Shown: in pieces, positions 7,357-40,080 of the stretch
How the letters are laid out: every line of letters begins with the position of its first letter
Position numbering within the stretch: position 1 is the stretch's first letter
Origin: Savitreella phatthalungensis
Lineage: Eukaryota
NCBI GenBank assembly: GCA_051599415.1
Contig: AP039707.1
Span: forward strand, 1-64,000
Reading direction: 5' to 3'
Length of the DNA stretch: 64,000 nt
Translations under genes and position numbers: made by a program
Notes under the pieces: generated by a model
The model's input: the letters and a program-made list of their open reading frames with translations, nothing else
Databases searched by the model: none
Told to the model about the DNA's origin: nothing

Positions 7357-7853
7357 TCTTCAGACGACCCCGCAAGACGCGGTAATGTAAAGCGAGTATG
7401 TGTGTGTATTAGGTTACGTAGACCTACAGTGCACACGTATGTATACAATCAAGCGAAAAAGTGATTAGTGATCAGTGGACAAGATCGTAGTTGTAAGAGG
7501 CAAGCAAGGCGACAATGATGATGGCGAGTGCAGGAAGAGCCAGAAGATTAGCGCTGCAGCAAGTAAATTGCCACGTAAGGCGATGAGCAGGCTAGCGAAT
7601 CAGGTGACGAGTAGGCCGATGGCAAACCTCGTATGTCTACATGCAAGTTACAGGCCAGGGGAGCGGCGCACTAGCGAGCCAAAATGGATGGAAGTCGCGA
7701 GCTCACAAGCGAGCGGTGCACGAGAGAGCCAAAACGACGCGGCTCACGCGTCCAGGAGCGAGAGGCATGGCATGTAAGCGAAATGAAGAATGTCGCATTT
7801 GGATGAACAATACGTTCTATAAAGGAACGATCTGTCCGCAGTAAGATAGTCAT

Positions 7854-8780
7854 ATGGACCAACAAATGAGCGACTTGCCCGCTACCAGTATGTCGGCCTC
7901 TTCAACTGGTGACGCGCAGGCGCTCTCACCAGCAGCACATGGACTGCTACACAGACGCTTGCCTACTCAACAAGAGCGCATTCGTCCGCGTGCTGGCGAC
8001 TTCTCTCTTGAGGCTGTGCCAGAGGATGCGACAGAGGAGGAGAGGAAGCGGCGCCTGGGAGCGTACCTTCGAGTGCTGCTTCTCCTCCATTTCGACTTGT
8101 CCAGGACCGTACCTGGCCACTCTGGTGATCAGCCGGTCACATACTTCAAACTGGCCATGAGCCAACTCTTTCCAGGCCTGGCAGAAGACTCGATGAGCTA
8201 CAGAAGCCTGATGCTGTACGGAACAAGTCAGGTCCGCGACTGGACTTTTGAGGTTGCCGAGTCGTACCGGCAATGGCTGGCTGACGCCGGTGAAGCCGTA
8301 AACGGTGAATGGATCGAGGCTCTCGAAGAAGAGGATGACAGCGACGATGAAAACGACGATGACGATGAAGATCTTCATCAAAGGAGCGCTCTGGACCGAG
8401 TGCTGATCCAGCGAGTGGACCAGGTCATCTTTGAGGACTTCTGGAAGTTCGCTGCGGCCTTAATCGACTTCGAAGCTTCGCTCGAGCGGCGCAATGTACG
8501 CCGCTTCTTCAAATATCATTGGATTTGTCTCGCTGGCGCTGTCTTCTTTGAGATCAAGGACCTTGTCGAGAGCGATACAAGAGACCATGAAGATTTGACG
8601 GAACAGTTCCGCAAGTTGGCGTACGACACAGGCGCTCCGAGGATCTCTATCGAGGACCTGGTGATGTACCCTGCCAAGCAGGCTGCGATCAACTCTTCTG
8701 TAGAGTTCGATCAAAGGTGCAAACGCATCGCGAGGAGGCTATTTGGCAGCCGTCGCAACCTACTTTCCCGCATTGACTAG
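7854..8780 (+). CDS. Orphan protein A (308 aa, helical, with an acidic tract)
   Basis: Intact ORF with TATAAA at 7818-7823. The duplicated fragments downstream keep recognisable peptide similarity (RRFF[KQ]YHWICLAGA.FF...EDLTEQFR.LA.DTGAP). Confidence 0.75.
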   Translation: MDQQMSDLPATSMSASSTGDAQALSPAAHGLLHRRLPTQQERIRPRAGDFSLEAVPEDATEEERKRRLGAYLRVLLLLHFDLSRTVPGHSGDQPVTYFKLAMSQLFPGLAEDSMSYRSLMLYGTSQVRDWTFEVAESYRQWLADAGEAVNGEWIEALEEEDDSDDENDDDDEDLHQRSALDRVLIQRVDQVIFEDFWKFAAALIDFEASLERRNVRRFFKYHWICLAGAVFFEIKDLVESDTRDHEDLTEQFRKLAYDTGAPRISIEDLVMYPAKQAAINSSVEFDQRCKRIARRLFGSRRNLLSRID

Positions 8781-8902
8781 CCACTGCAATCGATCTTATT
8801 TGCCTGACGTGCCCGTCTCCGCTGTGCGCGTCTCTGTCACCATTGTGACCTCTTTAGTCATATGATCGATCACAGATCCCCTCTACCTGATCACTTTCCC
8901 TT

Positions 8903-9885
8903 GCCAAGATGACGAGGCTCACGCGTCCGCGAGCCAGAGGCATGGCATGGCATGGCATGAAGCGAGATGAAGAACGTCGCATATGGCCGAACACATGTGC
9001 TATTAAGGAATGATCTGTCCGCAGTAAGATAGTCATATGGACCAACAAATGAGCGACTCGCCGCTACCAGTATGTCGGCCTCTTCAAGTGACGACGCGCA
9101 GGCACGCTTACCGGCAGCACATGGATTGCTGACCCTTTGATGGAGATCGTCGTCATCTTGACAATGTCGTCATGACAGTGATGACGAAGATCTTCATCAA
9201 AGGAGCGCCTGTGTCGTGAGCCAAGATGCGGAATTGCTCCGTCAAGTCTTCGCGGTCTGCTGTCTCGCGCTCGATAATGCCGTCGAGCCCAAAGAACGCG
9301 GCGCCAGCGAGACAAATCCAATGATATTGGAAGAAGCGGCGTACATTGAGCCGCTCGAGCGAAGCCAAGGCCTGAGTCAACTTAAATCGATTTCGAGGCT
9401 TCACTTGAGCGTCACAATGTGCGCACATTCTTTCAGTACCACTGGATCCGCCTTGCTGGCGCTGCTTTCTTTGGGATCGATGGCGTTATCGAGCGCGACA
9501 CAGCAGACCGCGAAGACTTGACGGAGCAATTCCGCATCTTGGCCCACGACACAGGCGCTCCTTTGATGAAGATCTTCGTCGTCATTGTCAAGACGACATT
9601 GTCAAGATGACGACGATCTCCATCAAAGGATTATCTCCATGAAGATTCGACTAGGCCTCGATTTAAGTTGACTCAGGCCTTGGCTTCACTCGGGCGTCAC
9701 CATGTGCGCAGATTCTTTCAGTACCACTGGATCCGCCTTGCTGGCGCTGCTTTCTTTGGGATCGATGGCCTTATCGAGAGCGATGCAAAAGACCGTGAAG
9801 ATTCGACAGAACAGTTCCGCAACCTATTTTCGCGCTTCGACTAGCCAGCCACTGCGATCGACGTGCCCGTCTCCACTGTGCATGC
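8903..9885 (+). ncRNA. Candidate long hairpin RNA locus 1: rearranged non-coding duplicate of orphan gene A
   Basis: 8903-9130 copies the gene A promoter and 5' end; 9012-9058 is identical to 7829-7875 and is followed by a 1-nt frameshift. Inverted arms at 9134-9366 and 9397-9629 with a 30-nt loop. Extra sense copy at ~9682-9824. The 3' end (9840-9885) resembles 8776-8830. Transcription not shown. Confidence 0.6.
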
Positions 9886-10277
9886 TTCCACCGTCTTTGT
9901 CGATGTGCTGGACGCTTTGTTATCCTTGTGCTTACATCACTCATCATACTTCTCGTCACTTTACTCGCCGTCTCACTCGTCACCTTCTAGCCATACCTTA
10001 TTCGCCATCTGAATCGTCTCATCATCTTGCTTGATACCTTGCTCTTCGCCATCTTAATTGTTGTATCCTACTGGTTACCTTGCTCGTCACCTTCCTCTTC
10101 AGCTTCTCCTCGTTACCTGATACGACACCTTCCTTGACATCTCACTGTTGATCCATTCACTGCGCTGCTTGTCGACTAGCTCGTCACGATTCTGACTGTT
10201 TTCGGACGATTGAACATGACTTGTACTGTATATTTGAAACGTATCGTCAGAACACGAATCGCAACAGACGCCACGTG

Positions 10278-11558
10278 ATGACCTCGCAGTTCCACGGCAC
10301 TGCGCAGTACGAGGAGCTCTGTGCGACGTTTGATCCACGTGAGACTGTCACAGAATATGCGCTCCGGCGCATGAAAGAATTAGGTCTCAATACAGAGCCC
10401 GTGGACCTGGACGATCTCGTGAGCCATGCTCAAGCGCAGCCATTGCTGATCAGACAGCGCAATGGACAAATTGTGCTTTCGGTCTGGATGCCGCGGCCTG
10501 AAGGGGAAGGGACCTGGATCAATCGAGTGAGGCGTGAGATTTCACGGGATACTCCTGAAGGTCGATTCTTCAAGTGGATGAAGAGTGATCTCTTCCACCA
10601 CGAGGCCTGGAAGAAGGTGCCACTCTCCGACAGCAGCTACGGCTTCTCAGAAGCCGCTGTTAAGGTCGCATGGTGTCTGCGTCAAATCCACAAGCACCAG
10701 ATCGAAGACCACAAGATGGAGATGAGGTACTTAAAGGTCTTGATCGAGCATGCTTTAGCAGGGAGTTGCGCTCGCTATGATTGCCCGCGGGACTGGTTGA
10801 ACCACGAGATCTACCTGCTGATTGGCTGGGCTCCAGAGCGCAGCGACGACCAGGACCCATCGCCACCGAAGGGATCTCGCTGGACGAGCAACGTATGCGG
10901 CCACAGCATTCGCCCTTACGTTGGACGCACGCAGAGCAATCCGAAGCGAGCGTACAAGCACTTTGGCAGTCGCTTCGCAAAGCAAGATATCGACCAGACT
11001 CTCGAGAAGATCCACCAGGCTGAAGAGGAGCTTTTCGGGGGCTCGAGATCTGGCAACGACGTCAAACACATCTCTCTCGTCATTCACTGGCGAACTGCTC
11101 CGGGCGACGTCAAAGATCTTGAGTCGAATATGATCACAGCTGCCAGGACGCATTTCCTGGAGCTAGGGTGCAATCACGGTGGCAACGAGACTTCGCACTG
11201 GATTTGCCTTCCTTCATTCAACGGCGAACAAAGCGGCAAGCAGCGCTGGAAGACAGCGCATCGCCAGGTCATGGATTGGCTGGACTCCTACCGACCTTCC
11301 CGATTGATGTTGGTGAAAGAGGGACCTCTAGCTGGCTTCATGGTGCCTTCTGCGAATCGCGCGCACGGTATGGGCACCAAGGTCGATCCTGGCTTTCGAA
11401 AAACCTTCCACAACATGGATCTTGCGGTTCGGAATGGCTGCAGGGCTTGTAGGCTCGACTACAACACGCTTGATGTGGCCACAGCCGAGCAGCTGCTACG
11501 CAACGTAGACCCAAGGGCGTCCAGAGGTCCTCATCGCAATCGTTACATGCGCATGTAG
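10278..11558 (+). CDS. Putative GIY-YIG endonuclease domain protein
   Basis: Ordered motifs EIY...PYVGRT..NPKRAYKH...DLESNMI...LGCN fit the GIY-YIG pattern (Y, YxG, R, H, E, N). The spacer between the two Tyr motifs is longer than usual. First ATG at 10278. Confidence 0.65.
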   Translation: MTSQFHGTAQYEELCATFDPRETVTEYALRRMKELGLNTEPVDLDDLVSHAQAQPLLIRQRNGQIVLSVWMPRPEGEGTWINRVRREISRDTPEGRFFKWMKSDLFHHEAWKKVPLSDSSYGFSEAAVKVAWCLRQIHKHQIEDHKMEMRYLKVLIEHALAGSCARYDCPRDWLNHEIYLLIGWAPERSDDQDPSPPKGSRWTSNVCGHSIRPYVGRTQSNPKRAYKHFGSRFAKQDIDQTLEKIHQAEEELFGGSRSGNDVKHISLVIHWRTAPGDVKDLESNMITAARTHFLELGCNHGGNETSHWICLPSFNGEQSGKQRWKTAHRQVMDWLDSYRPSRLMLVKEGPLAGFMVPSANRAHGMGTKVDPGFRKTFHNMDLAVRNGCRACRLDYNTLDVATAEQLLRNVDPRASRGPHRNRYMRM

Positions 11559-12052
11559 CACCCAGCTTTCCTCATTTAAACACGCATACATAGCTTTATG
11601 TGGCTGACGGTGTCATGTTCCTTCGACTGCATTACGACTTGCCACTAAGGAGATTCGACTAGCTGCATGGAGCTTCTTTAGGCCTCACAAGGTTCTCATG
11701 AAGCTTCCTTATCTCGTCCGCATGAAGCTCGCTCACCTGACTGGAGCTTACGCGACCGTGACGCTCACTCAACTGCTCAGAGCTTACTGGACAATATGGA
11801 TCTTCCTCTCACGTCGTGAAAGTTGAGCCCACTCGTCACAGAGCTTTCTCATCTGCATAGAGTGGTACAGCAGTGTAATGGAGTTCAATTGATGATGCAA
11901 TGCCACGCGAGCCAATCCACGTGTCTCTCTTCTAAGGTCCAACAAAGCTATAGCTTGACTTGCGCAGGCGATTGCTTGTTCGCTTGCTCCATTGAAATGC
12001 TACTGTCTCTCACTACTGTGATGGACGGACGCGTCAAAGGCGAGCTCTGATC

Positions 12053-12742
12053 ATGAATGAGCTCAACCGACGTGAGGTCAATGCTCGTGCTGCTTTTCGC
12101 TTTGTGCCAGCTGACCTCCCTGTTCGATCGGCGGATGGTGAGCGTCTGGTCGGGGAGCGTGCTGTGCATCCCTTCCCAGCCCCAGCTGCCCTCGGTAGCT
12201 ATCCGCGACGCCTAGCAGACGAAGAGGTTGATCTGCTTGAAGGCGATACCCCACTTGATGAGGAACTCATCGTCTTACTCTTGCAGGATCCCGACATTCT
12301 TGCAGTCTATCGCCTGCGCCCGCCAAGGTCTGTACTACTGGTGCACGTTTATCGACCGACCGATCTCGAGAAGATCGGCGTGCTCTACAATCTCAGGCGC
12401 AGTCTTGAGTACTGCGTCACCACGCCGCGCCGGACTTTGCTGCTTGAGCAGCGTGCACATGACGTTTATAGGAGCGCAGGCAATCTGAACGCGGCTCTTC
12501 AAAGGATGTTGGACTTCTGCCGTGTGCAGAACAGCCGCGCAGAGTACGTGATGCTGCGACCTGGTCAGGGCGATGATTGGTCGCCTAGAGGACGTACCAC
12601 TGCAGCCCTTGCTATCATCTTTGCGCAGCGCAACACGGCTACTCTCTGGATGCGCCGGCTTGCGCGAGCGCCTGACTCGCGTGAGTATACCGTCAGATTT
12701 GCTCCGCACCCTAGAGATGCTTCTTTCTACTACGTCCCCTAG
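12053..12742 (+). CDS. Orphan protein (229 aa)
   Basis: Intact ATG-to-stop ORF with globular composition and only a faint resemblance to Ulp1/C48-like motifs. Confidence 0.55.
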   Translation: MNELNRREVNARAAFRFVPADLPVRSADGERLVGERAVHPFPAPAALGSYPRRLADEEVDLLEGDTPLDEELIVLLLQDPDILAVYRLRPPRSVLLVHVYRPTDLEKIGVLYNLRRSLEYCVTTPRRTLLLEQRAHDVYRSAGNLNAALQRMLDFCRVQNSRAEYVMLRPGQGDDWSPRGRTTAALAIIFAQRNTATLWMRRLARAPDSREYTVRFAPHPRDASFYYVP

Positions 12743-12941
12743 CTAACGCTCTGATACTAGCAATCTATTGTATTGATACTGTTCATGCACCTGCCGTACC
12801 TTGACAATGACCTTCAGAATGCCCTATCACCATCTCGAGCCACGCTGTTGTAGACCTATGTGTGCTCTCGTATGCTCTGATGTGCTCTCGAGGCCTCATC
12901 CGGCATCTCTCGATATCCTCTAATGCTGCATCTCTAGGTTC

Positions 12942-13784
12942 ATGTCTCAGCGCAACGCCGGACGGGCGAATGTCATCATTGACAGTCGATCCGTCCGCGG
13001 TGCCCTTCCTGCGATGGTCCAGACGTACCTGAAAGCGACCTTGTGCATTGCCTGGCGCAACCAGGAGAATCAGAGCTCGGTCTCAGGCAGTGTCGCTCGC
13101 GAAGCTCTGCAAATTTTGGTCGGTCGCACATACGACCTACAGGACGAGAACGAACTCTATGCCTTCCAGGTGGACTTCGTGAACATTTTGCGCGGAGACA
13201 TCAACCCCGAGCGGACGCAGATGCGCAGAGGTCGCGCCGCGAGCTAGCCGACAAGACAGCGCAGCTGGAGGCGACGACAGCGCAGGTTCAGTGTCTGACA
13301 ACGCTGACCGAGAGACGTCAAGTCTAAGCAGACGCAGGCGCGCAGAGAAGCCGTCACGAGCGTGAGACCACGAAGACCCAGCTTGAGACCACAACAGCGC
13401 AGCTGCAGTCAACAACAGCGCGGCTTCGAGCTGCTCTGTCTTGTCGCCTAGCTCGTGGCGAGATTCGCATCTGCGTCCGCTTGGAGTTGACGTTGCTCGT
13501 CGAGCGCCGTTATTGACTGAACCTTTGCTGTCGTGGCCCCGAGCTGCGTTGTCTTGTCCTCCGGCCGATGATGATATTTCTCTGCGCGTCTGCGTCTGCT
13601 TGGACTTGACGTTCTTTGGCGAGTGTCGTCACAAAGTCCAGCTCGTGGCGAGACCTCTCCACATCTGCTTCTGCTTGGAGTCGACGTTCCCGAACAGAAT
13701 TGTCGCGAAGTCCACGAGAAATGCATAGGCTTCGTCCTCGTCTTGTAGATCGTATTTGCGACCGACCAAATTCTTCAGAGCTTC
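12942..13784 (+). ncRNA. Candidate hairpin locus 2: short ORF 12942-13247 followed by a mosaic inverted repeat
   Basis: 13101-13247 is the diverged reverse complement of ~13638-13784. Inner antisense modules at ~13428-13490, ~13513-13557 and ~13578-13612 pair with ~13200-13268, ~13250-13295 and ~13315-13348. Confidence 0.5.
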
Positions 13785-15559
13785 ATATGTCAGCGGCTAT
13801 GTGTGCCGCTGCTGCTTCACAGCGAGTTCTCTCTACGATTGCTGCTGCACTCTTTCGTCGGTGCTAAGCTCAATGTAGTCATCTTCTTCTGATCTTGCCG
13901 AATTCGAAACAGCTGTCTGCCGCATTGTTTCGCTTCACTCGATATCACCACCTCTCGTGTGATCTTGGTAGACTCGACGTGGATCTTCCCGGTACCGCCT
14001 GGCTTTCCTCACGGCCTCTCGTGGTTTTCTCTTGACTTCTCGCGGCTCCTCATTACTCCTCGTGACAAATTGACGGAAATCCACCTCCATATCGTGGTCT
14101 CGCTCAAAGCGCTGTCGATTCTTCTCTCGTGAACTCACTGAACTCGATATCAATCTTATTTTTTACCATCGTCATCGATTCTGGTGCGCTTGTTGTTGAT
14201 CCTGCGTCGTGCCCAGTGACCGTCCGAAGAAGGGCGTGTTGAGGGCACGATCTAACATCCTTGTGAGACCACTCGAATGCAGGTGATCATATTGCTATCA
14301 GCGACAACCGTTCAAGCGAGTGCTAATATACCTGATGACACTCTCCAGGCTTCCCTGAGCGTCACAACAGTAGCATGTTCGAGGTGCGATTGCCAGCGTA
14401 CGCTGCCTGCTGCCACTGACTGCATAAGCGTCGTGTCGCCTGCTGCTCGTCGTTTGATTGTGCTGTCGCTCGAATGCGCCAGCGGCTCCATGTCTGACTT
14501 GTGCAGCCCTTCTCCAGAGGTTGGCTAAAGGCGCAGATGCCTTGCAAGAGAGCTATTTGGCGGTAGTTCATCCTGCTCTTGTGCTTTGGTTGACTAGGCC
14601 TTGCAATCGCTCCTGGACGCGGATCAGCACATTTGGTCCACACGTTGGTTGTCACTTTACCCTTTGCCGTACACGTTGCTCACACGATCTTGCACACATT
14701 TTCACATGATGCCATGCTCATTTCTACTTGCTTCTTTCTCGACTTCATCCCCCAGATGGCTTTTCCTGCTTTATCACTGTCCTATTATTGTATTGAATGG
14801 TCTCGAAGACGATTGCACTGCAACAGTCATACGCATTGCAACTCAAAACAACATGTAAAAAGAGTTCAGCTCCAGAAGACGAACATTTCTTGTATCATTG
14901 AGCATGACGGCAGCGACGTCTCAATTTACTCATCGACAAACAGCGAGTGAAACGAGCCCAATTCGACTCGTCTAGGTCGATCGGATCTGTCCCGATTCGC
15001 ATCACAATTCTATCCATAGATCACACGCAGCATATGTGGCTAGGACTTGCTTCCAGATCGATGAACTTCTTCATGGGTAATCATGTTGATCGGACTATGG
15101 ATAGAGTCAAGATTTGAAAGTGTGAATTCAAACCACTGGATGATACTATGTCTCTGCTTTCTTTGCATGATTAAATTATGGACCGATCGACCCGGCACTA
15201 TGGTCTCTCGATAAAGGAATGCCGTGAGGGTGTATCTTAGATCAGGCTCCTTCAAATCGATGATCATCGATGCCCAGCTGAGCCATGAGCAGTCTTCTTT
15301 CTTTTGTAGAAATACACGGTGTGCAGGCCTGGGGCTCTGGACGAACCAGCGCAAGGCTCAATTTCACGGCGAGTGTATTGGCAAGGCACTAAGAGCGTGG
15401 TCCCTGTCCTGTCACGACGTCCGCACCTTCCAGTCCAGCTGTTCCTGATTCAGGTCGCGTCGCGCCATTGATACAGCGTCACGCACGCAATTCGACAAGC
15501 ATGCATTAATGTTACATTGGCGTCCCTTTGCGCCATGATCGACATTTCCGATCGCTTCG

Positions 15560-16288
15560 CTACCGCCTGCCGTCGCGAATCCTGGAGGAGCGGCGCGGTG
15601 ATTCCTGCGGCTCTGGCGTGTCCTCATCGACGTCCTTTAGCCTCGTATTCGTTCTCCTGTTGCCCGCCTTCGGGGTCAGGGGCACGCCGAATCCTGGTGA
15701 AGGCTCCTTTGTGCGTGTGCTGGAACGCTTCTTGGGCGTCACTGGCGTATCAAAATCGAAGCTTCGCTCGTCGAATGGTGAATTCAGGCCGCGCTGCTGA
15801 TTGAAGTATCCCGGGAGGTCATTTGTTATTGCGGACATCCGGTTGACGGCGGGCTGCTGTGGAGCGACGTGGGGGGATGCAGGCTCTGGCGCGTGCCTGC
15901 GCACCAGTAGGAGAAGTCGCTTCCTGGTCTGTGCGAGTGTATGCGGCCATGAGCGTCCCTCCTGTCTGATGACACGCTTGGCGACTCTGGACAGGAGTGC
16001 CGGTGGTGGTGCGCTGGCGACAAATGGCGGATTCTGGTGGGAATAGCTGATGACCTCAGCGTTGTAAACAGTCAAAAGCCTGTCCTCCTGTGCCTGACCC
16101 CAATCCGACTCCATCGCGTCATCCCCGTCGCTCGATAGCATGCTGGCGGATGAGGTCGTCCGTGCGGGCTGTGGACGATGTGTGTATGATGCGCTGGACG
16201 CGATCGAAGGCGTACGCAGCGATGGATCGCAGTCAAGCGAGTATTGCGGCACGCGCAGGTGAAGATCTGCTGCGCGATTGCGCGGCAT
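15560..16288 (-). CDS. Hypothetical fungal protein (242 aa)
   Basis: Intact ORF with a compact domain (W..AQED.LL..Y...PPF...PP..L.RVAK...WPHTLAQTRKRL) flanked by disordered S/P-rich tails. First gene of the core block. Confidence 0.7.
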   Translation of the reverse strand: MPRNRAADLHLRVPQYSLDCDPSLRTPSIASSASYTHRPQPARTTSSASMLSSDGDDAMESDWGQAQEDRLLTVYNAEVISYSHQNPPFVASAPPPALLSRVAKRVIRQEGRSWPHTLAQTRKRLLLLVRRHAPEPASPHVAPQQPAVNRMSAITNDLPGYFNQQRGLNSPFDERSFDFDTPVTPKKRSSTRTKEPSPGFGVPLTPKAGNRRTNTRLKDVDEDTPEPQESPRRSSRIRDGRR

Positions 16289-16458
16289 CGCGAGCGCTCG
16301 ATCGTGGCCGATGGTGACGTCGTCTTATGATATATGGGTTTATTATGATTTGGACGATCGAACCCGATTGACCTATGATCTAAGCCTTGCATGAATCGAT
16401 CGAATCAAATCTTGGCTTTCGGGATCCACGGGGTTGGATGCATACAATTTCGAAAATC

Positions 16459-18483
16459 TTACGTACTAGTGAGGAGGAAAAAATAGAGGTATGCAGTGCG
16501 GTCAGCTTGGTCGACGTCGATGCCGCGGACGACGCGCTCGTCATTGAATAGAGTCCAGCCCTCCTTAGTCCGGCAGAAAGCGACGTAATGGCCTGCATGG
16601 ACGCTCGCACCCTTGTGACAGGCCATGGCTTGCAATGTGTACGGGCCTGGGACGCTGCCGCCGGCCGGCTTAGCAGTCGGGGCTTCCTTGCCGGAAACAA
16701 GCCATTCCATGGCGGCATCGAATCCAGTGGTGTACTTCAGAGCAGCTTCACAGCGGTCTTTCGGGAAGCCCATATCCATGAGCAGACTCAATGTCGGATC
16801 GTCCTCTTCTGCCCCGTCTCCCGCGCCAGAAAACAACCACTCCATGGCTCCCTCGACTTCCGGATTGTGTTTGAGGGCGGCGATGCACTTGTCTCTAGGG
16901 AATCCCATTTCCTGTAGCTGTGATAGAGCTGCCTCGTCGACTGCATTGGATTCAGAATCTGGAAGGGGTTCTTCGCCCGGTTGTCTACCCTTCGCCCTGA
17001 GAGTGTCAAGGGAGAAGTCATTTGCCCTAACAGGGACCTCAAGCTTAACAGGCACCCAATTCTTGAGCTCAAACCTGCCTGGGTTGAGAACAAGCACGTC
17101 GGGAAATGTGAGAAATCGCGTGGAACGTATGGCACCCTCGAACGAGCCACACGCGCACTTGTAGTCGACGCGTTCCTCGCCTGTGTAGATCCTGAGCAGT
17201 TCCTCGACGGAGACGCCGGCGTCTCCTGGTGGCACGAGCACCGATACGTTGTCCTGCGTCGTGGTTGAATAACCGACTCGCTTACATCCCAGACACTGCG
17301 TCCTCTGCTCTGCCTCGAATCTGAAGCTGTCGACCGGCGAGGCGTCGAGCTTGTCAATCTTGGACGAGAGGTACAGAAGAAACTCAAATGCGTCCTGCTG
17401 GCGCATCGAGCCGAACTCGGGATGTCCCTTGCCGATAAGAGACTTCAGCAGGGCGGGCGAAATGCTCTCATACCTGCCACTCAAGAGGCCGTCTCCGATT
17501 CGGCGCATCTGCACATCCAAGTCGCCTGCCGGGTCGTGTACAGGTCGCGGCGCCTGACCAAATCGCTCCTTGAAAGCGGGCAAGGTGAAGAGGCATTGAA
17601 CGACACTCGCGAGGTAGCAGGAGTTGCCGAGGTTCCGCATGCCTGTCAGACCTGGGCCGGAAAGAGGCTCGCCTGCTTCATCCAGTGAAAACTCCCATTT
17701 GAGATTCTGCTCGAGCTGCAGCTCTTGTAACGAAAGTTCTGTCTTAACAGTCTTGCCGAGGTCGACGCCAAAGTGTGACAGATGGGAGGCGAGCTCCGGG
17801 TCGATGCGCTCCTCGTCGCATACGTAGCAGTAGATGTCCGCCGTCCCTTCCGGAGTGATAGAGCCGAGCTTCACGGCGACAGAGTGACCAGTCGTATCCA
17901 CGTGCCGCACACCATGGCCATTGCCGCCAACGCCGCCAAATTGCTGCCTCCCACATGCGACATTGCCGCACACAAGACACATCCACAGATTGGAATCGAG
18001 TTGGCAGTCTGAGCACGTCTTCGCAGGCGCTTCCTTACCCTGTAGCTGCTCCAGGCAAAGGACGTGCTCGCAAGACGTCAGCTCCTGCTCCCATGCCTGA
18101 ACCTCTTCCTGCTGGGCTGATGACAGGGCTTCTAGGACGATGCGTGCCAAATCGTCCGGAATTTCGATCTCTCCGCATTCATAGCATCTCGCTGCCGATG
18201 TCGTCTCGTACCGCTCAGCATCTGTCTCGCGGTTGATTGCAAGCTTCTCAATGGGTTTGTCTGCCTTTGGCCGTTCCTTCCGGCGCACGTTCAGCACGAC
18301 GCGATGTCCCGTCAGTTCATGATGGGCTTTGCTGTGGCCACGGTCGATGCAGCCTGCTTGGAAGCACGTGAGACAGACGTCGACACCGGATGCATCGTCC
18401 TGCGAGCAGAAGCAGTGACAGCATTCGTCGCGGTATACTTTGGCTGGCCGCGAAGGTACAGGGATGTGGGTACAGGCTGCCAT
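16459..18483 (-). CDS. UBP14: Ubiquitin C-terminal hydrolase 14 (USP5/13 family)
   Basis: ZnF-UBP domains, Cys box [23 protein letters not shown], two UBA domains (MGFP), His box HAGHYVA. Confidence 0.96.
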
Positions 18484-18565
18484 GGCTCGTCTCTTCATGG
18501 AAGATGCGTGCTTGCTCACGCGCCAATGTATTTCAATTCATAAAATACCGTACGTCACGCACAAA

Positions 18566-19771: not shown

Positions 19772-20045
19772 TCTAGCGAGCGAGGTAGAGCATAATGAAG
19801 CACTGATGAGAAATAAGGTCTTCATGACGAAGAAGTAGACCCAGTATATCCGCATGGACGAGATGATCCTGATCTAGTCTCTTTGTATGCTGTGCATCAC
19901 CAGATGCCTGCCTCGTGGATTCCCAGAAGCAATCACAAATGCAGACTCGAGAGATTGAGCCAACAGAGAGGGGGCAAAACAAAAGGTGCAAACAAGAGGG
20001 AGCAAAGTAAAAAGAGCAAAAAAGAGGAAAAAGCAAAAGGAAATC

Positions 20046-20117
20046 TAGCGCTAGTAGGGCTCGATCCTACGATCTCCGGGTTATGGGCCCGGCGCCATAC
20101 CACTTGGCCATAGCGCT
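20046..20117 (-). tRNA. Initiator tRNA-Met (CAU)
   Basis: AGCGCTATGGCCAAGTGGTATGGCGCCGGGCCCATAACCCGGAGATCGTAGGATCGAGCCCTACTAGCGCTA: A1-U72 pair, GGG/CCC anticodon stem, GATCG T-loop typical of eukaryotic initiator tRNAs. Confidence 0.95.
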
Positions 20118-29091: not shown

Positions 29092-30744
29092 CTATGAATC
29101 CATCCGCACGAGCCAGTCTTGGTCGACGAGGAAGCTCTTGACCTGGTTGATCGTGCACTCGTTCCTGTGGAAGATGCCAGCTGCGAGTGCTGCCTCGCAC
29201 CCAGTAGCCTCAAACACCTCTTTGAAGTGCTCGGGCCGGCCGGCGCCGGACGATGCAATTACAGGGATCCGTACTGCTGATTTGACGTCCTTCACAAGAT
29301 CGAGGTCGTATCCGGCATTTGTTCCGTCCTGGTCCATGCAATTTAGAAGGATCTCACCTGCACCTAGAGCTTCTGCGGCAGTGACGAGTTGTCTAACGTC
29401 AAGGTCGCGTGCTTCGCGTCCGCCCGAGACTGTGCACTGGTACCAAGCATAACGCTGACCTTCTGGTCCAGTGAAGCTCATCTCGATTGTGTGATGAGGT
29501 GTGTCTGCTGGACTGTGCACCCACCGCCTACGAGGATCGACGCTGACGACGACTGCCTGGCAGCCGTACGCCTGTGAGATGGTCTCGATTGGTGAGCTGC
29601 CCGTCCTGCCGTTGCCTGCGTGGTAAGCCTCCGCGGCGTAGACTGCGTCGCTGCCAATCGAGATCTTGTCAGCTCCCGCATCAAAGTAATAGCGTGCAAC
29701 CTCGAGCGCAGTCTCTTCTGGTGTGTCGCGAATGCCGCCTCCCACAGTCATCGGCACGAACACAGATTTTGCCGCTTGCCGAAGTACTTCAAGCATGGGC
29801 GCTTCCTGTGCTCGCGTGCTCCGGAAGGATGTGATATTCAAGAATGTGACCTCATCTGCACCTTCCTCATAGTATCGCTTCGCGAGCTCCACAGGCTTGC
29901 CGAGATTGCGTACGGCGGAAGATGATCGGTCCCGGACGTCGTACTGATCACCCTTTGTGACAACGAGATCACCTTGGTCGTTCGATCTAACATCCAGACA
30001 GGCGATGATCCGATAGGTTAGACCGCCGTGGCCGGGTTGCTCAGATACGACTGTGGCTTTGCCCGTGATGTGCTTCCGCACAGTACGATTTAAGAAGGCT
30101 TCGAGGACTTTGAGGCCTGCAGCACCGGACTTCTCTGGATGGAACTGTGTAGCGAGGCAGTTCTCGCGAGCGACAGCACCGACATACTCCTCTGTGCCGT
30201 ATCTTGCCGTCGCTACAGACCAGCCTCCTCCGGCCCCTGATATCTTCTGATCGTCTGCCAGCTTTCGGCAGTAAGAGTGAACGTAGTAGTATTTTGCGTG
30301 GGGAGTGATGCCGTAGATGGCTGTGTCCGTCTCGTCCCGCACAACGGCACTGTTCCATCCAATGCAAGGGACCGCCTTGTCGGCTGAGTCGAACCTGCGT
30401 ACGATGCCGGGTATGACGCCGAGACCAGGGATGTCGGGTGCCTCCTCGCTGCCCTCGAAAAGAGCCTGCATGCCTACGCAGATGCCCATGAAGGGCTTGC
30501 CTGCATCGATGTAGCTCTTGAGAGGTGCAGCATATCCCTGTTTCCGCAATGATCCGCAGACATGTCCAAAATTGCCAACACCTGGGAACAAGAGTACCTC
30601 TGCCTTCTCCACATCCTCAGGAGATTCGACAAATTTGTGCTGAAAGCCGAGCTGCTCGATGGCGTTGACGAGCGATCGAACGTTGCCTGCGCCATATGAT
30701 AGGATAGAGACCGTCGGCCGGTAGACGGCGTTGGATCCGGCCAT
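29092..30744 (-). CDS. HIS7: Imidazole glycerol phosphate synthase (HisH-HisF fusion)
   Basis: YGAGNVRSL, FPGVGNFG, GICVGMQ, QFHPEKSG, RIIACLDVRSND.GDLVVTKGDQYDVR, ALAAGIFHR. Confidence 0.97.
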   Translation of the reverse strand: MAGSNAVYRPTVSILSYGAGNVRSLVNAIEQLGFQHKFVESPEDVEKAEVLLFPGVGNFGHVCGSLRKQGYAAPLKSYIDAGKPFMGICVGMQALFEGSEEAPDIPGLGVIPGIVRRFDSADKAVPCIGWNSAVVRDETDTAIYGITPHAKYYYVHSYCRKLADDQKISGAGGGWSVATARYGTEEYVGAVARENCLATQFHPEKSGAAGLKVLEAFLNRTVRKHITGKATVVSEQPGHGGLTYRIIACLDVRSNDQGDLVVTKGDQYDVRDRSSSAVRNLGKPVELAKRYYEEGADEVTFLNITSFRSTRAQEAPMLEVLRQAAKSVFVPMTVGGGIRDTPEETALEVARYYFDAGADKISIGSDAVYAAEAYHAGNGRTGSSPIETISQAYGCQAVVVSVDPRRRWVHSPADTPHHTIEMSFTGPEGQRYAWYQCTVSGGREARDLDVRQLVTAAEALGAGEILLNCMDQDGTNAGYDLDLVKDVKSAVRIPVIASSGAGRPEHFKEVFEATGCEAALAAGIFHRNECTINQVKSFLVDQDWLVRMDS

Positions 30745-33763: not shown

Positions 33764-34648
33764 ATGACTCTTGAAGATCTGCTCTTGATACCGACAATCT
33801 CTCGTACGCTCCTTCGCTCTCTGCCCCATGCTGACCGTCTAGCCGTGTGTAGTCTCACCCGCGCCATCAATCACGAACTCTACACGGCTGCATCAACCTG
33901 GCAGACTCTCGACATCTCCGCAGGTAGCTTCACCAGTGCGCTTCCAACGCTCAAGAGAATAGGATGGTGCCTCCGAGGCGTATGTATCGACTGCGCACAA
34001 TTCACGTTCGAGCAGTTGGACCAACTGATCGTCCTTTGTCCCAAACTCCGATACCTCGGCGCGGCTGGTTTGACATGCTATGATGACCGTGATGCATCCG
34101 ATCGGTTGCTCAAATTCGCGCGCGGGCTTCGTTGCGCTCTGCCTGAGCTCAGGCGAGTAGATCTGCTGGGCGCGCCGTTACTTCGTACGCTTGGCGACAA
34201 CGAGCTCGCCGTTATCTTGGTGAAACAGGTGCTGGCGCCGCAGGGCATCGCTACTGATCTGGAACCTTGTCCACGCGAGCACGCCTTCGAAGACAAATCC
34301 CGCAAGTGGCATCTTTGCACGCGCGGCACCAGCACATGTGCTCGATGTGGTCGAATAGAGAGATCCTGCTTTCGTTGCTCATCCGCACGCACCTGCAGGG
34401 GATGCATCAAGTACTGGTGCCACGAATGTGATCACACCATCACTCGCTCTTGTTACGAGTGTGGCTTCTCTTGTGCGACTTGTAAAGGTGGTATCATTCT
34501 CACCTGTCGCGAGTGCACGTCGAACTTCTGTCGCCTTCATTCCTCCGGTGGGAGGGTCATCGAGGGTGGTCAAGATCCAGCCGACGCTTCGGATGCACAG
34601 CTGTGCGACTGGTGCATACAGGATAGGTGTCAAGGATGGGGAGCATGA
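33764..34648 (+). CDS. F-box/LRR-like protein with a Cys-rich C-terminus
   Basis: N-terminal F-box-like segment ending in WQTLDIS, LRR-like CPKLRYL and LPELRRVDL, and many CxxC pairs. Confidence 0.75.
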   Translation: MTLEDLLLIPTISRTLLRSLPHADRLAVCSLTRAINHELYTAASTWQTLDISAGSFTSALPTLKRIGWCLRGVCIDCAQFTFEQLDQLIVLCPKLRYLGAAGLTCYDDRDASDRLLKFARGLRCALPELRRVDLLGAPLLRTLGDNELAVILVKQVLAPQGIATDLEPCPREHAFEDKSRKWHLCTRGTSTCARCGRIERSCFRCSSARTCRGCIKYWCHECDHTITRSCYECGFSCATCKGGIILTCRECTSNFCRLHSSGGRVIEGGQDPADASDAQLCDWCIQDRCQGWGA

Positions 34649-35154
34649 GTCGATTCAGAAGTGCTCACACATTTTCACAGGTATGTCGACAAGATTCCGC
34701 GAGCGGTACCGTTGCTCGTGAACCCGATCGTCTGCATTCTGACAATTTCTCCAGGTGGAGGCGTGCGTCGTATGCGAGCAGCCATGTACGTCGAGGAATA
34801 GTCCACAACAATCTTCTCGCCCACTTATATCGAACATTCGATCCTTCTCCTTTCTCAAATTCTGTTCCGCTTGCCTGCGTGACTCAAACGCATCTCATGG
34901 ATGTGGCGCAGAACAGCTCAAAGATTCGCCACGATGCACGCTTGGGCGCAGGCCAGAAGCTTTTCGCAAGCAAGACGTCGATGTCTGCTCCAAGTTGCAT
35001 AATGCGAGAGATGCGTCGTCAGCCTCGTGCGGGGTTGCGACTTTTGCATCATGCGTATGCAGACTTCTCGCACGCCCTCTCGCCTCTTCCTCCCTCCATC
35101 AAATCGTATAAGAGACGCGCCGCTACGCGGCGTGAAGTCTGGTCGTCCGCGGTA

Positions 35155-36234
35155 ATGTTTGCATACATGCTCGCAGAGCGATCTTGCCAGCTTGAGCTGA
35201 TGACGGCGTATGACATGACGTACGGTGCAGTTGCCCAGGGCGCGCATCTGATGGTGAAGTGTACGCCAGGCCCGGAATCGAACTATGGGTATCATATCAA
35301 CCTCGAAAACTACGCGATCCAGGAGATGGGTCGTGGTCACCATCCACTATACGTCAGAGAGCCAGGAGACGAGGACGTCAAGATTATCAGATACGTCGGC
35401 TGCCTCGAGGTTGGGTATCGCCTTTTCTCCGTTTCTGGCACCTGGACGGACACTGTTGGAGGCGGACGACCGCAGTGTCCGCGTGAGGAGTATTGGCTGC
35501 GGAGCACGCAGGCGCGATCGGTTACGGCCGAACGATCTGGGTCTACCGTGGTCGTGAGGAATAAGGCAAATCAAAGCTGGGCTCATGATGCTCGTGCTAT
35601 CGATCCAGTCACCGGGAAAGACGCAGCTGGCCTCATGTCGGAGCCGCAAGTCATCGCGCGCGTAGCTGTACAGTTCGAGCCGCACACTGCTATCAAGGTG
35701 GTCGCGACAGGCGAGACAAGCGACGTGGGCGTGATGCTGTGGATGCGATTCGGTGTTCCGCCTACAGTTCTGCATCCTGAGGCAGCTCTCCGCGTTCGCA
35801 ACAATTTGAAACTGAACATGATGCTCCGTGCCAAGGTCCTCTTGCTGTCAGCTCCGCCTCCGTATGAGCCGGTCGAGTCGGAAGGACCCCGAGTCGACGA
35901 TGTTGTCGTCTTCCAGCGGGACGCTCTGCTGTGTGCTGCCATGCATGTTCTTGCTCATCCGGCCATAGAGCCATTTTGGCAGCTCTACCGGAACGAGGCA
36001 GAAATTGCCTGGAGCAACAGGGGTTGCTCAAGCCTGCCATATCTGTACGCTGCTGGGATCCACTCCGGGCGCCTATTCGGACCTGCGCGAGACCCCTTCG
36101 CGGACTCTGCATTTCACAAGGAGGTCAGCTCGGCCCGGGCAACGTATGATGAGCCAAGCAGCGGACCAGCAGATTCGCTGATGCAGGGCCATCTCGAGGC
36201 ACTAGCAGAGAGAGCACGTAGTCGACGCCCGTAA
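35155..36234 (+). CDS. Orphan protein with a PPPY motif
   Basis: Long ORF, open from 34627. A TATAAG about 45 bp upstream favours the ATG at 35155. No family recognised. Confidence 0.6.
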   Translation: MFAYMLAERSCQLELMTAYDMTYGAVAQGAHLMVKCTPGPESNYGYHINLENYAIQEMGRGHHPLYVREPGDEDVKIIRYVGCLEVGYRLFSVSGTWTDTVGGGRPQCPREEYWLRSTQARSVTAERSGSTVVVRNKANQSWAHDARAIDPVTGKDAAGLMSEPQVIARVAVQFEPHTAIKVVATGETSDVGVMLWMRFGVPPTVLHPEAALRVRNNLKLNMMLRAKVLLLSAPPPYEPVESEGPRVDDVVVFQRDALLCAAMHVLAHPAIEPFWQLYRNEAEIAWSNRGCSSLPYLYAAGIHSGRLFGPARDPFADSAFHKEVSSARATYDEPSSGPADSLMQGHLEALAERARSRRP

Positions 36235-36550: not shown

Positions 36551-37414
36551 CTACCGCCATGCTGCCTGCCGTTTGCGTGCCGGTGCCGGCAGCAGGGTCC
36601 ATCCGATGTCCCGCTCTTTGAGCGAGACTCGTCCGAGCCCGAGCCCGAACCAGGACGAGCTTTTCGCGATCTGTGCCTCAAGGCTGCGCTTCGCCGAATC
36701 GTGGAATTCAAGCTCGTTTAACGTTATGCGTTGAGACTGCGAGCCAGCACTAGCACCTGGGAGTCTTGGCGGTAGTGGGGTGAGGGCGGTCGACCCGCGG
36801 AGCAAGAATGTGTTCAGCAACGGCACAATCCAGCTCGGATCGGCCCTTGGAGCGATTTCAAAGGACACCGAAGTTGTACGACCGGCGTGGACGTTGCCCA
36901 CTCGTATTGATACTGCCGCGTATGTAATTTTGTTGTCGTGGTCCAGATAACATTCCCACTGCAGGGTGGCTGTTGCCAGCTTGCTGACCGTTTGTGTAAG
37001 GTTTTTCGAGCGATCGTGCTCAAGCTCAGCCTTGATCGGCATGCTCGGGGAACCGTTGATGCCGGCTGTGGCTGACGTCGATTGAGTTGAATCGACTGTC
37101 ATCGACTGCTTTTGCCTCGAGCCAGGCGTGTTGGCCTGCTCGAGACCTTTGAGTATTTGATGATCGCCGTGGCGGCGTTTCCGTCCCATGAAGAGGTCGA
37201 TTCTTACGACCTCTTTCGTGCTGGGAGTCGCTGCCTGCGGCACTTCCACCAGCAGAGTTTTTGTCGTGGCGTCCCACGACAAAGTCGTCGCCGCATTGGC
37301 CCAAGCGCTCTTCGAGTTCATTGTGAGCACTGACGTCGCCAGATAAGCTGGACTGACTCGGTTCAGCACGTTTGCTGTGACGGGGAAAGCTTGGCCATGA
37401 CTCCTCTTGGTCAT
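36551..37414 (-). CDS. Orphan protein B (287 aa, predicted beta-rich)
   Basis: Intact ORF with TATATAAG at 37565-37558. A paralogous N-terminus is preserved at 39619-39454. Confidence 0.75.
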   Translation of the reverse strand: MTKRSHGQAFPVTANVLNRVSPAYLATSVLTMNSKSAWANAATTLSWDATTKTLLVEVPQAATPSTKEVVRIDLFMGRKRRHGDHQILKGLEQANTPGSRQKQSMTVDSTQSTSATAGINGSPSMPIKAELEHDRSKNLTQTVSKLATATLQWECYLDHDNKITYAAVSIRVGNVHAGRTTSVSFEIAPRADPSWIVPLLNTFLLRGSTALTPLPPRLPGASAGSQSQRITLNELEFHDSAKRSLEAQIAKSSSWFGLGLGRVSLKERDIGWTLLPAPARKRQAAWR

Positions 37415-39079
37415 GGCGACCTGAGAATGTTATAAAGAAAGTGGCTCAATGAATGCTTTGGAAATAAGGATGCGTGGGCAAAGCCGTCAGAGAGAGAGCG
37501 AGAGAGAGTGTATGTGTGTGTGTGTGTGAGTGTGACTGAGATACGCTGACACCTGGTCTTATATAGACGTGTAGACCCCGTGCTGGCCACGATTGGACTG
37601 CTACTCGAGTGCTACTCGACTCCCACTCGATTCCAACTCGACTGTGGAACACTGGGATTAGTGGTTGATTGAACCTGGTAATTGACTAATATGAATCTGG
37701 TAATTGATTAGATTCAGAGTTTTGAGTTTTTGCTGGTAAGCTATGCTTCAGCAGCAGGCGATCACTTCGGTCTCAGCTGTGCTGCACGAAGAAGCACATC
37801 GTGGAGATTGTTTAAGCACTTGAAAGCACAAAGTGATTCCTGGACTTGTAACCTGGACAGCTTCTGGTTGGATTTGACTGGTAAAGATCTGCGGTGGCGC
37901 TTGCATTTCCAGAATTCCAACGCGGAGCAAAACCGAGTCAATCGAGGATGTGTGATACGAATGAGAGAAGATTCCAAAATTTTTATACGGGTGGCCATTA
38001 CAGTCTGGTCTCCCTCAGCTTACTTTTTCCAGTCTCGGCTATTCTTTTTCTTCATGATCTCGTACAGCTATACACAATCCGCCTAAATATAGTAACGGCT
38101 TCCAATTGGTTTATGATCCCGCGGATCCACTAAACAGGGAACACAACTCCCGTTATCAGGCAACATCGTTTGATCCTGGCTACATACGGCAGAGCACTGT
38201 AAATTAAATTCATTGGCGACCTCTGGAATGCTTCAGATATATTCATCTGCTTTCTGCCGGATTTTCCAGGAGTATTAATTGCTTCACGCGTCTCAGCACA
38301 ATAGCCTGAATTGATACATTAACGTCTAGCTGGGTGAGTCCGCAGAGATCGAGCAGGTCAAACCCAAAATGATATCATCCATTGGCGTCCATGAACTCTG
38401 GAAAATATGTAGCTGATATGCCAGGCATTTCAACGATACACCTCACACAGATCTAGAGCACGTTGAAGATACAGGGAAGCATGAGTAGCGTGACAGAATA
38501 CACTCTAGCCTGTCAAAGACAGTGCATAGTCTCGAGGTCATAACAGAATGTATGCATGGTGAAGCTCTCAGTACTACTGGACTGCAGCTGCGCAGGCACT
38601 GAATGTAGCCATACTGCCTCGATCGTTCTATGGCATGTCGTGTAGTGCCTGACTTCGTTCGCCTGCGATCACATGCTATCAGTCAGTCGCGAGCTGAAAT
38701 TGACCTTCTCACCTATCCTGATAATCTCAATGCATAACAGTCCACACTGCATCAAATCGGCAATCTCCTCAGAGTCAATTACTCTGACTGGAATCACTGC
38801 ACGTGTGTCAGATGAGTCTCACACCGATCTACACGTCCCATACATGTACGTGCGTATATGGATTGATTCAATATACTCATACGTACTGCCAGCCGCTCAC
38901 ATACTGCACGTGACTTCCCAGCTGGTCACATTCTCAGGATAGCCCTGACGAAGCAGCTGCCTCATGAGCCAGCAGACGGGGCACACCTTTTAACATTCTT
39001 CATTCTCGAGTTGCCGCATGACAACGAGCACGACGCGCAGTATAGCAAGAGCACAATGACTAGCCCGGCGATCAGTTAA

Positions 39080-39709
39080 CTCTCTCTCTCTTCCGACTCT
39101 GCTCACGCATCCTTATTCTCAAGGCATTCATTGAGCTCCACTTTCTTCATTCTCAGAAACATCATGACCACAAGAAGCCACGCCAAAGCGTTCCCTCCGG
39201 TGCCGAACGTGCTGACGAGGTCAGGACTGATGTTGATGTTGCTAAGTTCACACACACACATTCTCTCTCTATCTCTCTTCCGACTCTGCCACGCATCTTT
39301 ATTCAAGGCATTCATTGAGCTCGAACTTTCTTCATTCCGTTCTCAGGTCATCATGACCAAAAGGACTCACGACCAGACTTTCCTCCACACCAAACGTGCT
39401 GACGAAGGTCTATCCAGCCGACTTAGCTACGTCGGTCCTTACAATGTGCTCGACAAGCAGCGTGCCTGTCGTTGGATCCCAGTAGAGAGTGCTGGAATCG
39501 TGGTGGAACGCGCTCATCGAGCGCATTGTAAGTACTGTTGTCGCCAGATTGGCTGGACTGACCCTCGTCAGCACGTTTGGTGCGACGGAGAAAGCTTGGC
39601 AGTGAGTCCTTTTGGTCATGATGACCTGAGAACGGAATGAAGAAAATTCGAGCTCAACGATGCCTTGAATAAAGATGCGTGGCAGAGTCGGAAGAGAGAT
39701 AGAGAGAGA

Positions 39710-39781
<72 letters not shown>

Positions 39782-40080
39782 CTAGGATACGCTGACGTCT
39801 GGTCTTATGTAGACGTGTAGACGCCGTAATCGACACTTCTCGACTCCAACACGACCGTAGTCATGTGATCTGGTGACTGAGCCACTGTGCTCGTAAGTCA
39901 TGCTGCTGCGGCAGGTGATCAGTGCAAGTCGTGCAGGCATGATCAAATGGAGAACTGTGAAAGCACTGGCGGCATAATTGAAGCGACGGCTAATGTCCTC
40001 GAGCTGTAACAAGCCCAGGTCGTCTGACTTGGAATCAAGAGTTGATCCTGATTAATAGAGATCTGCAGTAGTGGCGGCAG
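39080..40080 (-). ncRNA. Candidate long hairpin RNA locus 3: truncated duplicate of orphan gene B with fold-back
   Basis: ~39620-40080 resembles the gene B upstream region (~37415-37900). Inverted arms at 39249-39453 and 39517-39722 with a 63-nt loop. A second antisense copy lies at ~39080-39222. Confidence 0.6.
39711..39780. repeat. (TG)35 microsatellite
   Basis: Pure dinucleotide run; the gene B leader has a shorter homologous tract at ~37508-37534. Confidence 0.95.

Follow-up and report, generated by a model that had tools for sequence, protein, structure and literature searches.

Fold-back copies of lineage-specific genes in the chromosome-end region of the yeast Savitreella phatthalungensis, and their probable mutational origin

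The window considered here, the first 64,000 nucleotides (nt) of contig AP039707.1 of Savitreella phatthalungensis (GenBank assembly GCA_051599415.1, forward strand, positions 1 to 64,000), contains three long inverted repeats, or fold-backs, which we call FB1, FB2 and FB3. FB1 lies inside A′, a rearranged copy of a neighbouring gene (gene A), FB3 lies inside C′, a partial copy of another (gene C), and FB2 is made of pieces of a third. An initial annotation of this DNA had suggested that such structures might have arisen repeatedly against selfish or toxic genes, as hairpin-RNA (hpRNA) suppressors or RNA antitoxins. Its description was accurate and the structures are real, but in our estimation A′, C′ and FB2 are probably (with a probability of about 0.62) fold-back pseudogenes of mutational origin, any small RNAs made from them arising incidentally and not as a suppressor system under selection. 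Nothing that we found supports a dedicated system of suppressors raised recurrently against selfish genes.

Three fold-backs and the genes they copy

Scanning the 64 kb for inverted pairs of at least 50 nt gave 11, all in three loci, and none among the genes of the window to which a Pfam family could be assigned. The positions given in the initial annotation, 9134–9629 for FB1, 13101–13784 for FB2 and 39249–39722 for FB3, hold in a self-BLASTN comparison of the window, as does the claim that the three are unrelated, no mutual similarity being found among them; the E-values (3e-165, 1.5e-36 and 1e-132, respectively) exclude chance as an explanation. The arms measure 233 nt in FB1, about 200 nt in FB2 and about 210 nt in FB3, and the spacers are 30 nt in FB1, 53 nt in FB3 and, between its inner pair, 228 nt in FB2. 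At each locus homology to a parent gene is combined with disabling lesions, the usual marks of a duplicated pseudogene.

Gene A (7854–8780, plus strand) was recognized from the list of open reading frames (ORFs); it encodes 308 amino acids (aa) and has no known relatives. Its promoter and 5′ leader (7728–7853, plus strand), delimited by alignment with the copy in A′, contain a TATAAAG box near 7818. A′ (8903–9881) is a second copy of the whole gene A unit, beginning 123 bp past the gene A stop codon, the two starts being about 1183 bp apart. The initial annotation had placed fold-backs beside an intact orphan gene at two loci, and this is literally so for A′; FB3, as described below, is less intimately placed. 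In A′, the promoter and leader together with the opening 95 coding nt (8903–9130, plus strand) match gene A 7728–7948 with 84% identity over 230 nt (self-BLASTN), some 120 bp of promoter having been kept, and there is an exact match of 47 nt (9012–9058 = 7829–7875) across the interval between TATA box and ATG and around the start codon. The copy is clearly damaged, as had been noted: its TATAAAG has become TATTAAG, a 1-nt deletion causes a frameshift after codon 7, translation from the annotated start would end after 23 codons, and two internal deletions have removed the counterparts of roughly 7949–8330 and 8639–8753 of gene A.

What remains of the coding sequence in A′ has been extensively rearranged. 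If we designate as X an acidic stretch like 8330–8389 of gene A, and as Z the segment 8462–8638, then A′ reads sense X, antisense Z, a 30-nt loop, sense Z, antisense X, a third, sense Z and finally the gene A 3′ end. Thus, in plus-strand order, the left arm of FB1 (9134–9366) consists of the sense acidic piece and antisense 8475–8638, joined at GGAGCGC; the loop (9367–9396) includes a 10-nt palindrome, AAATCGATTT, at 9384–9393; and the right arm (9397–9629) consists of sense 8462–8638 joined at GCGCTCC to the antisense acidic stretch. The two 233-nt arms are 89% complementary. Beyond them, 9658–9881 (plus strand) holds the third, sense arm copy (9658–9821) followed by a copy of the gene A stop codon and 3′ end, 9818–9881 resembling 8754–8827 of gene A in 55 of 78 aligned columns. 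An extra diverged arm copy of this kind had been noted for both A′ and C′, and both could be located.

Gene C (36551–37414, minus strand), likewise from the ORF list and without known relatives, encodes 287 aa, although public annotation starts it at Met32, giving 256 aa. Upstream (37415–37610, minus strand), a (GA)n(GT)n microsatellite occupies part of the leader, and the promoter carries the motif TATATAAG. C′ (39080–39854) is 1.8 kb from the gene C start codon, so that in this case only a loose sense of ‘beside’ can stand. On the minus strand, C′ runs from a promoter copy through (GT)n to the sense arm of FB3 (39722–39512), the 53-nt loop (39459–39511) and the antisense arm (39458–39249). 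The first of these parts (39723–39854, minus strand) combines an expanded (GT)n microsatellite (repeat family D5) with the core promoter copy, in which the TATA element has changed from TATATAAG to TACATAAG, so that, as the initial annotation had pointed out, each of the two copied promoters carries a single TATA substitution. The sense arm (39512–39722, minus strand) contains the leader and first 38 or so codons of gene C in frame; the antisense arm (39249–39458, plus strand) contains the same region, frameshifted, its outer end lying in (CA)n. The extra diverged copy of the gene C leader and start (39080–39222, plus strand) is antisense to gene C and ends, on its outer side, at (CT)n. C′ is truncated as well as frameshifted. 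The correspondence with gene C amounts to 79% for 37305–37534 against 39510–39738 and 90% over the 42 nt of core promoter (37540–37581 against 39786–39827), bearing out, with the A′ alignment, the proposal that promoter and start of the parent were copied at two loci. Within FB3, pairing is perfect over 63 nt at the outside (39249–39311 with 39660–39722), falling to 92% over the next 71 nt (39312–39382 with 39590–39660) and to 77% over the innermost 78 nt (39381–39458 with 39512–39589). Roughly half the length of each FB3 arm consists of 5′ leader and microsatellite and not of coding sequence, which corrects the initial description of the arms as coding-derived. The (GT)n of the gene C leader (37497–37530) has grown to some 40 units in C′ (39700–39780).

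FB2 (13101–13784) is a tail-to-tail fold-back, detected by both the inverted-repeat scan and self-BLASTN. Its outer arms (13101–13245 and 13640–13784; 145 nt, 79%) are accompanied by an inner pair (13296–13349 and 13578–13631; 54 nt, 81%). The left arm corresponds to the last 48 codons of a listed ORF of 101 aa (12942–13247, plus strand). The right arm, read on the minus strand, is the C-terminal fragment of a gene; it has no start codon, and a stop lies in frame immediately before it. No promoter copy was found at FB2.

Template switching, gene conversion and the question of artefact

How might such structures have been generated? We suggest that A′ and C′ originated as duplicates of two lineage-specific genes and have since decayed and been rearranged, and that FB2 duplicates part of a third gene in tail-to-tail form, all being situated in family-less DNA (that is, DNA whose ORFs lack Pfam families) of the chromosome-end region of a taphrinomycete yeast. 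The fold-backs would have arisen by template switching or fold-back repair, in the course of replication or of the repair of a break, and the arms would afterwards have been reshuffled by gene conversion with the parent and with each other. In an RNA interference (RNAi)-competent cell the transcripts of A′ and C′ would be diced, much as at the palindromic loci of Naumovozyma castellii, and the small RNAs would be a by-product, with A′ at most dampening gene A.

At locus 1, gene A contains a 7-nt inverted microhomology, GGAGCGC at 8383–8389 and GCGCTCC at 8632–8638, and the joints between X and antisense Z in A′, at 9202 and 9555, fall exactly on these words, which is the mark of a template switch. 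(Gene A also has a perfect 16-nt palindrome at 8364–8379.) At locus 3, the outer ends of both antisense copies in C′ lie within a (CA)n/(CT)n run, so that joints at inverted microhomology or simple repeats were found for both FB1 and FB3; both are also inverted duplications with the short spacers (30 and 53 nt) characteristic of fold-back events, and the telomere is 9–13 kb from FB1 and FB2. Fold-back inversions that proceed via hairpins of single-stranded DNA and via microhomology have been reported from yeast (PMC7467729; PMC11724301), and resemble the present loci in their short-spacer inverted duplications, inverted-microhomology joints and proximity to chromosome ends. Those are laboratory events, however, often involving tens of bases or whole chromosome arms, whereas the present ones are old, have become fixed, and involve 150–230 bp within copies of genes.

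The later history of FB1 can be read from the distribution of differences among its copies. In the 65 nt nearest the loop, the left arm is identical to gene A at 63 positions and to the right arm at 49, the right arm instead agreeing with the third copy at 61; over the next, distal 99 nt, the left arm agrees with the right arm at 92 positions and with gene A at 76. By this reckoning, gene conversion has made mosaics of the arms. All four Z copies have kept the reading frame, and the differences between the arms of FB1 comprise 16 synonymous and seven non-synonymous changes (ratio of non-synonymous to synonymous substitution rates, dN/dS, 0.09 over 53 codons). Because they are mostly synonymous, these differences were, we conclude, largely inherited from coding copies that had diverged under protein constraint, and were then moved by gene conversion; they did not accumulate through decay of the hairpin. 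The dN/dS value is 0.17 when gene A is compared with the right arm, 0.39 (38 codons) for gene C and the sense arm of FB3, and 0.70 for the two arms of FB2. The coding-like divergence among its copies indicates that the gene A family encodes protein now, or formerly did so.

Two other explanations of the origin of the arms were rejected. A transposon source finds no encouragement in the 100 further ORFs of the family-less stretches, none of which has a Pfam family, or in the arms themselves, which are gene-derived. Repeat-induced point mutation (RIP) would be expected to leave a strong excess of transitions; these are not dominant (27, against 12 transversions, between arms), the GC content is 49–57% throughout, and RIP is described as lacking from Taphrina deformans in the parts of the genome accounts that deal with it (PMC3648899; PMC4159005).

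It might be argued that the inverted repeats are false, having been introduced into the assembly by chimeric fold-back long reads. Within positions 1–66 there is a stretch that we take to be a nanopore adapter with a barcode flank, and which looks like untrimmed adapter, so that trimming may have been imperfect; moreover, our check against reads covered only the centre of FB1 and the whole of FB2. That check used Logan contigs of a run (X1) that is probably the source sample, and so is not independent of the assembly; its k-mer contigs show no differences over the FB1 loop (9234–9456) and the whole of FB2 (12996–13959). Against artefact, too, the arms differ by 11–23% in a coding-like and mosaic manner, whereas read chimeras would be nearly identical. 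We regard this explanation as close to refuted.

Some further observations emerged from the same comparisons. In X1, depth is about 70–160 at 6.0–14.4 kb, with almost nothing beyond and a loose end at 14423; in a second run (X2) it is 180–360 at 14.7–18.5 kb and only 3–5 in the unique distal parts. The two runs, reportedly from a single sample, thus complement each other over 6000–20000, a pattern that may reflect either a filter effect or variation of the distal 14 kb between subpopulations. Run X5, with the same species label and from another sample, contained next to none of the sampled words, which is not evidence of absence, and runs X3 and X4 contained small shares of them; the X3 contigs omit 9269–9735 and X4 offers only 11770–12900 and parts of 18–19.5 kb, gaps that again are not evidence of absence. 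X1 contains a second version of 6434–6521, 7428–7466 and 12961–13181, about 10% different and with a depth like that of the window’s own, from which it seems that there are paralogous copies elsewhere in the genome; the paralogue of 12961–13181 is about 88% identical. No close extra copy of the gene A family was present in X1 among the matches listed. In X3, a low-depth run labelled as another organism, the region upstream of gene A (7048–7739) is 99–100% identical to the window, and in the 3′ half of the gene identity is about 84% (8322–8575) and 93% (8618–8831). The part of gene A that the hairpin copies may thus be diversifying fast, or exchanging with its copies.

Hairpin transcripts and what they might do

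The retention of the parental core promoter makes A′ and C′ hairpin-RNA genes in form, and the architecture inferred in the initial annotation, in which a kept promoter leads into sense arm, loop and antisense arm derived from a neighbouring gene, is borne out. Their transcripts would be diced if the organism is RNAi-competent and if the promoters, weakened as they are, fire, and in that event only A′ could act on its neighbouring gene. All three inverted repeats would, by folding predictions, be able to form an extended RNA duplex: the predicted minimum free energies (plus and minus strand, respectively) are –414 and –402 kcal/mol for FB1, –391 and –401 kcal/mol for FB2 and –360 and –373 kcal/mol for FB3, compared with –143 to –250 kcal/mol for five mononucleotide shuffles of each locus (about –150 kcal/mol in the comparison with the –414 and –373 of FB1 and FB3), and the longest uninterrupted predicted helices are 46 bp (FB1), 35 bp (FB2) and 63 bp (FB3).

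Is the organism likely to be RNAi-competent? The product of the housekeeping gene for His7 (29092–30744) shares 78% identity with its Protomyces lactucae-debilis counterpart; Saitoella follows, as the next named match, at 62%. On these identities the organism can be placed as a Taphrina/Protomyces-like member of the Taphrinomycotina. According to the relevant passages of two genome accounts, T. deformans has most RNAi genes, including those for Argonaute and for a Dicer homologue without an N-terminal helicase, while Pneumocystis has lost RNAi (PMC3648899; PMC4159005); the first account also has some silencing genes of T. deformans, such as clr1, absent or truncated.

One may ask whether A′, and perhaps C′, might be working hpRNA genes whose small interfering RNAs (siRNAs) repress the parent, or a paralogue, post-transcriptionally. 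We consider this unlikely. In its favour, the layout of A′ is fully gene-like, from promoter, sense arm, loop and antisense arm to a copy of the parent’s 3′ end, uninterrupted helices of 38–63 bp are predicted, and in each duplicate no part is better kept than the core promoter. The presence of Dicer and Argonaute in T. deformans is encouraging in this respect, and so are two reports on other yeasts: palindromic loci are the most prolific in N. castellii, where they account for 74% of siRNA reads (bioRxiv 10.1101/2019.12.12.873604), and the subtelomeric TLO gene family of Candida albicans is silenced by RNAi.

To judge targeting, hairpin 22-mers were compared with the antisense of the neighbouring gene and counted by mismatches. 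FB1 has near-matches to the gene A mRNA because of the 65-nt tract in its antisense arm that is 97% identical to gene A; most of the perfect 22-mers sit in this tract, which was converted from gene A, and the longest exact antisense matches at the locus are 28, 23 and 19 nt. The same tract is, however, the worst-paired part of the stem (50 of 66 positions). For FB3, none of 453 22-mers is within two mismatches of the gene C mRNA, so that C′ no longer matches gene C, and the sole exact antisense match of at least 17 nt at this locus lies in the microsatellite. FB2, which in any case lacks a promoter copy, has 12 of 663 22-mers at two mismatches from its own ORF and none with fewer. Selection for RNA pairing might be expected to favour G:U over A:C mismatches on the promoter strand; the ratios are 10:7 for FB1, 12:6 for FB3 and 14:14 for FB2, and the pooled 22:13 for FB1 and FB3 is not significant (one-sided p about 0.09). 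Other considerations that count against working hpRNA genes are the mutation of both copied TATA boxes, the marks of template switching in replication or repair at the joints, the lack of any sign of harm by genes A or C, and the statement in a fission-yeast study that protein-coding genes of Schizosaccharomyces pombe resist siRNA-directed silencing in trans (PMC8253403).

Nevertheless, several features sit uneasily with an origin purely as mutational debris. Pairing in the outer stems is good (157 of 167 positions in FB1, against the 50 of 66 just mentioned, and 63 of 63 plus 65 of 71 in FB3). The 22-mers of FB1 that would match the gene A mRNA number 66 of 475 (nine perfect, 46 with one mismatch and 11 with two). 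Core promoter and leader are the best-kept parts of the duplicates (47 identical bases in A′ and 90% over 42 nt in C′, against 77–85% in the arms), which would fit continued use. In yeasts, a long inverted repeat is unstable when its spacer is short, so that the survival of the arms to a divergence of 11–23% is mildly surprising. Finally, all three fold-backs lie in family-less DNA, although, as such DNA accounts for some half of the window, a uniform model gives this only p = 0.125. We accept that these points weigh against our preferred reading of the fold-backs as pseudogenes.

A more daring scheme can also be constructed, which we think quite improbable. At least A′ and A would be a young working hpRNA gene and its target, one template switch having converted a tandem duplicate into a hairpin under its own promoter; the antisense arm would have been refreshed by gene conversion (hence the 63 of 65 identities), its siRNAs would hold gene A down via Dicer and Argonaute, and C′ and FB2 would be older relics whose targets have diverged or been lost. 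This would be, as far as is known, the first natural target-derived pair of hpRNA and gene in a fungus (our literature search found none), and the birth and decay of hpRNAs would be visible side by side.

The idea that the hairpins arose repeatedly against selfish genes depends on the nature of genes A and C, and here it proved to be conjecture. A word-index search with either gene found only the gene itself, as did a HMMER scan of 1.84 billion representative sequences with gene A; 359 (gene A) and 141 (gene C) pattern matches in Joint Genome Institute (JGI) metagenome contigs included none that could be confirmed. Comparison with Pfam, which we take to hold the wtf driver family of fission yeast, gave only chance-level matches at E ≤10, and a sequence search of the PDB gave nothing meaningful, so that neither gene has a driver- or toxin-family relative in these collections. 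A protein atlas offered DUF3632 for gene A (score 0.92) and, for gene C, unnamed clusters of bacterial hypothetical proteins together with pore-forming toxin families at 0.85–0.87, a level often due to chance; none of these leads was confirmed by any other tool. Single-sequence AlphaFold models had a mean predicted local distance difference test score (pLDDT) of 42.5 for A and 35.7 for C, too poor for fold comparison. Nothing, then, marks either gene as selfish or toxic.

A different kind of role would be in cis: dsRNA (double-stranded RNA) from the fold-backs might seed RNAi-dependent heterochromatin that would silence the chromosome end and the lineage-specific genes there, as siRNAs from repeats do at the subtelomeres of fission yeast. 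By analogy this has some appeal, as FB1 and FB2 are 9–13 kb from the telomere, the organism shares its subphylum with fission yeast, and RNAi genes are reported to have been kept in a relative; in S. pombe, tandem repeated genes reportedly promote RNAi-mediated heterochromatin (PMC9851402). FB3, however, is 39 kb from the end, between housekeeping genes, and the reported loss or truncation of silencing genes such as clr1 in T. deformans is unfavourable. We think a heterochromatic role very improbable.

The numerous contigs, unrelated to one another and present in all runs, that match the acidic GAT/GAC-rich stretch of gene A (8325–8375), at depths of up to 1346 in X2, suggest one further consequence of dicing: small RNAs from the outer stem of FB1 could match many genes with acidic tracts.

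It is useful to compare these loci with known systems. The palindromic siRNA loci of N. castellii are similarly endogenous yeast inverted repeats that give long hairpins, and are reported to rank as top Dicer substrates (bioRxiv 10.1101/2019.12.12.873604), but there the small RNAs were measured, whereas here they are hypothetical; the present loci, moreover, descend from a protein-coding gene nearby whose promoter they have retained, and budding yeasts use Dcr1 while a taphrinomycotine relative is reported to have a Dicer of canonical type. The Nmy and Tmy hpRNAs of Drosophila, which act on the Dox family, are also long inverted repeats made from copies of their target, with diverged paralogues and fast turnover (PMC10292708). 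In flies, however, dependence on Dcr-2 and AGO2, derepression of targets and drive have been demonstrated, and the hairpins are unlinked to their parents; here the hairpin adjoins its parent, locus 3 lacks parental identity of siRNA grade, and no drive or toxicity is indicated. In plants, microRNA (MIR) genes are reportedly born by inverted duplication of their targets, according to the original proposal. A later source describes fold-backs from a target segment with arms similar to the parent over their full length (PMC3237417), as here; Dicer-like (DCL) processing is part of the plant model, and the present arms are still hundreds of bases long.

What does this mean for the significance of the loci? 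If the hairpins are silent, or are diced debris, they represent an ordinary churn of tandem duplication, template-switch fold-back and gene conversion, unusual even then only in the single-base resolution of the joint at locus 1. Should A′ make siRNAs against gene A, the idea of a suppressor born of the gene that it silences, familiar from flies and plants, would extend to fungi, and a 2-kb locus with its parent adjoining would offer a compact and manageable experimental system in a yeast-like fungus associated with plants.

The chromosome-end setting

The window is one end of a contig of 262,765 bp, and begins at a chromosome end, as the telomere repeats show: (CCCTAA)n and degenerate CCCTSA repeats (67–270, no strand assigned; recognized from the sequence and as repeat family D1) extend to about 270, passing into CCCTCA and CCCTGA variants at 170–270. 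Ahead of them, a 20-nt word is present twice (1–20 and 47–66). From 300 to 2000 the sequence has a GC skew of –0.37 and an AT skew of –0.26, with numerous loosely repeated short motifs, and this 1.7 kb following the telomere repeats may be a degenerate subtelomeric repeat. Parts of the window are matched by identical contigs in a phyllosphere metagenome run.

Among the 24 long ORFs, 15 have Pfam families, and these lie at 16.4–32.8 kb and 41.7–63.4 kb; the nine without are at 2–16.3 kb and 33.7–37.4 kb. The initial annotation had described the fold-backs as lying in accessory regions, which agrees with the absence of Pfam families and homologues there, although that basis is not a genome comparison. 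There is a third family-less stretch of 7.7 kb (46300–54000), between genes for a nucleoside transporter and a histidine kinase, with no ORF having a Pfam family and no fold-back.

Loci 1 and 2 are together in a 6.8-kb block flanked by direct repeats (7102–7216 and 13861–13975; 87% over 115 nt), and these bracketing repeats suggest that the block may have been a segmental insertion or duplication. A further pair of direct repeats (4595–4676 and 7291–7370) is 78% identical over 82 nt. The only Rfam match in the window is a tRNA gene at 20046–20117 on the minus strand. Finally, two family-less ORFs (33764–34648 and 34636–36234) are on the same strand and overlap by 13 nt; they may be a single gene split by a frameshift or an intron.

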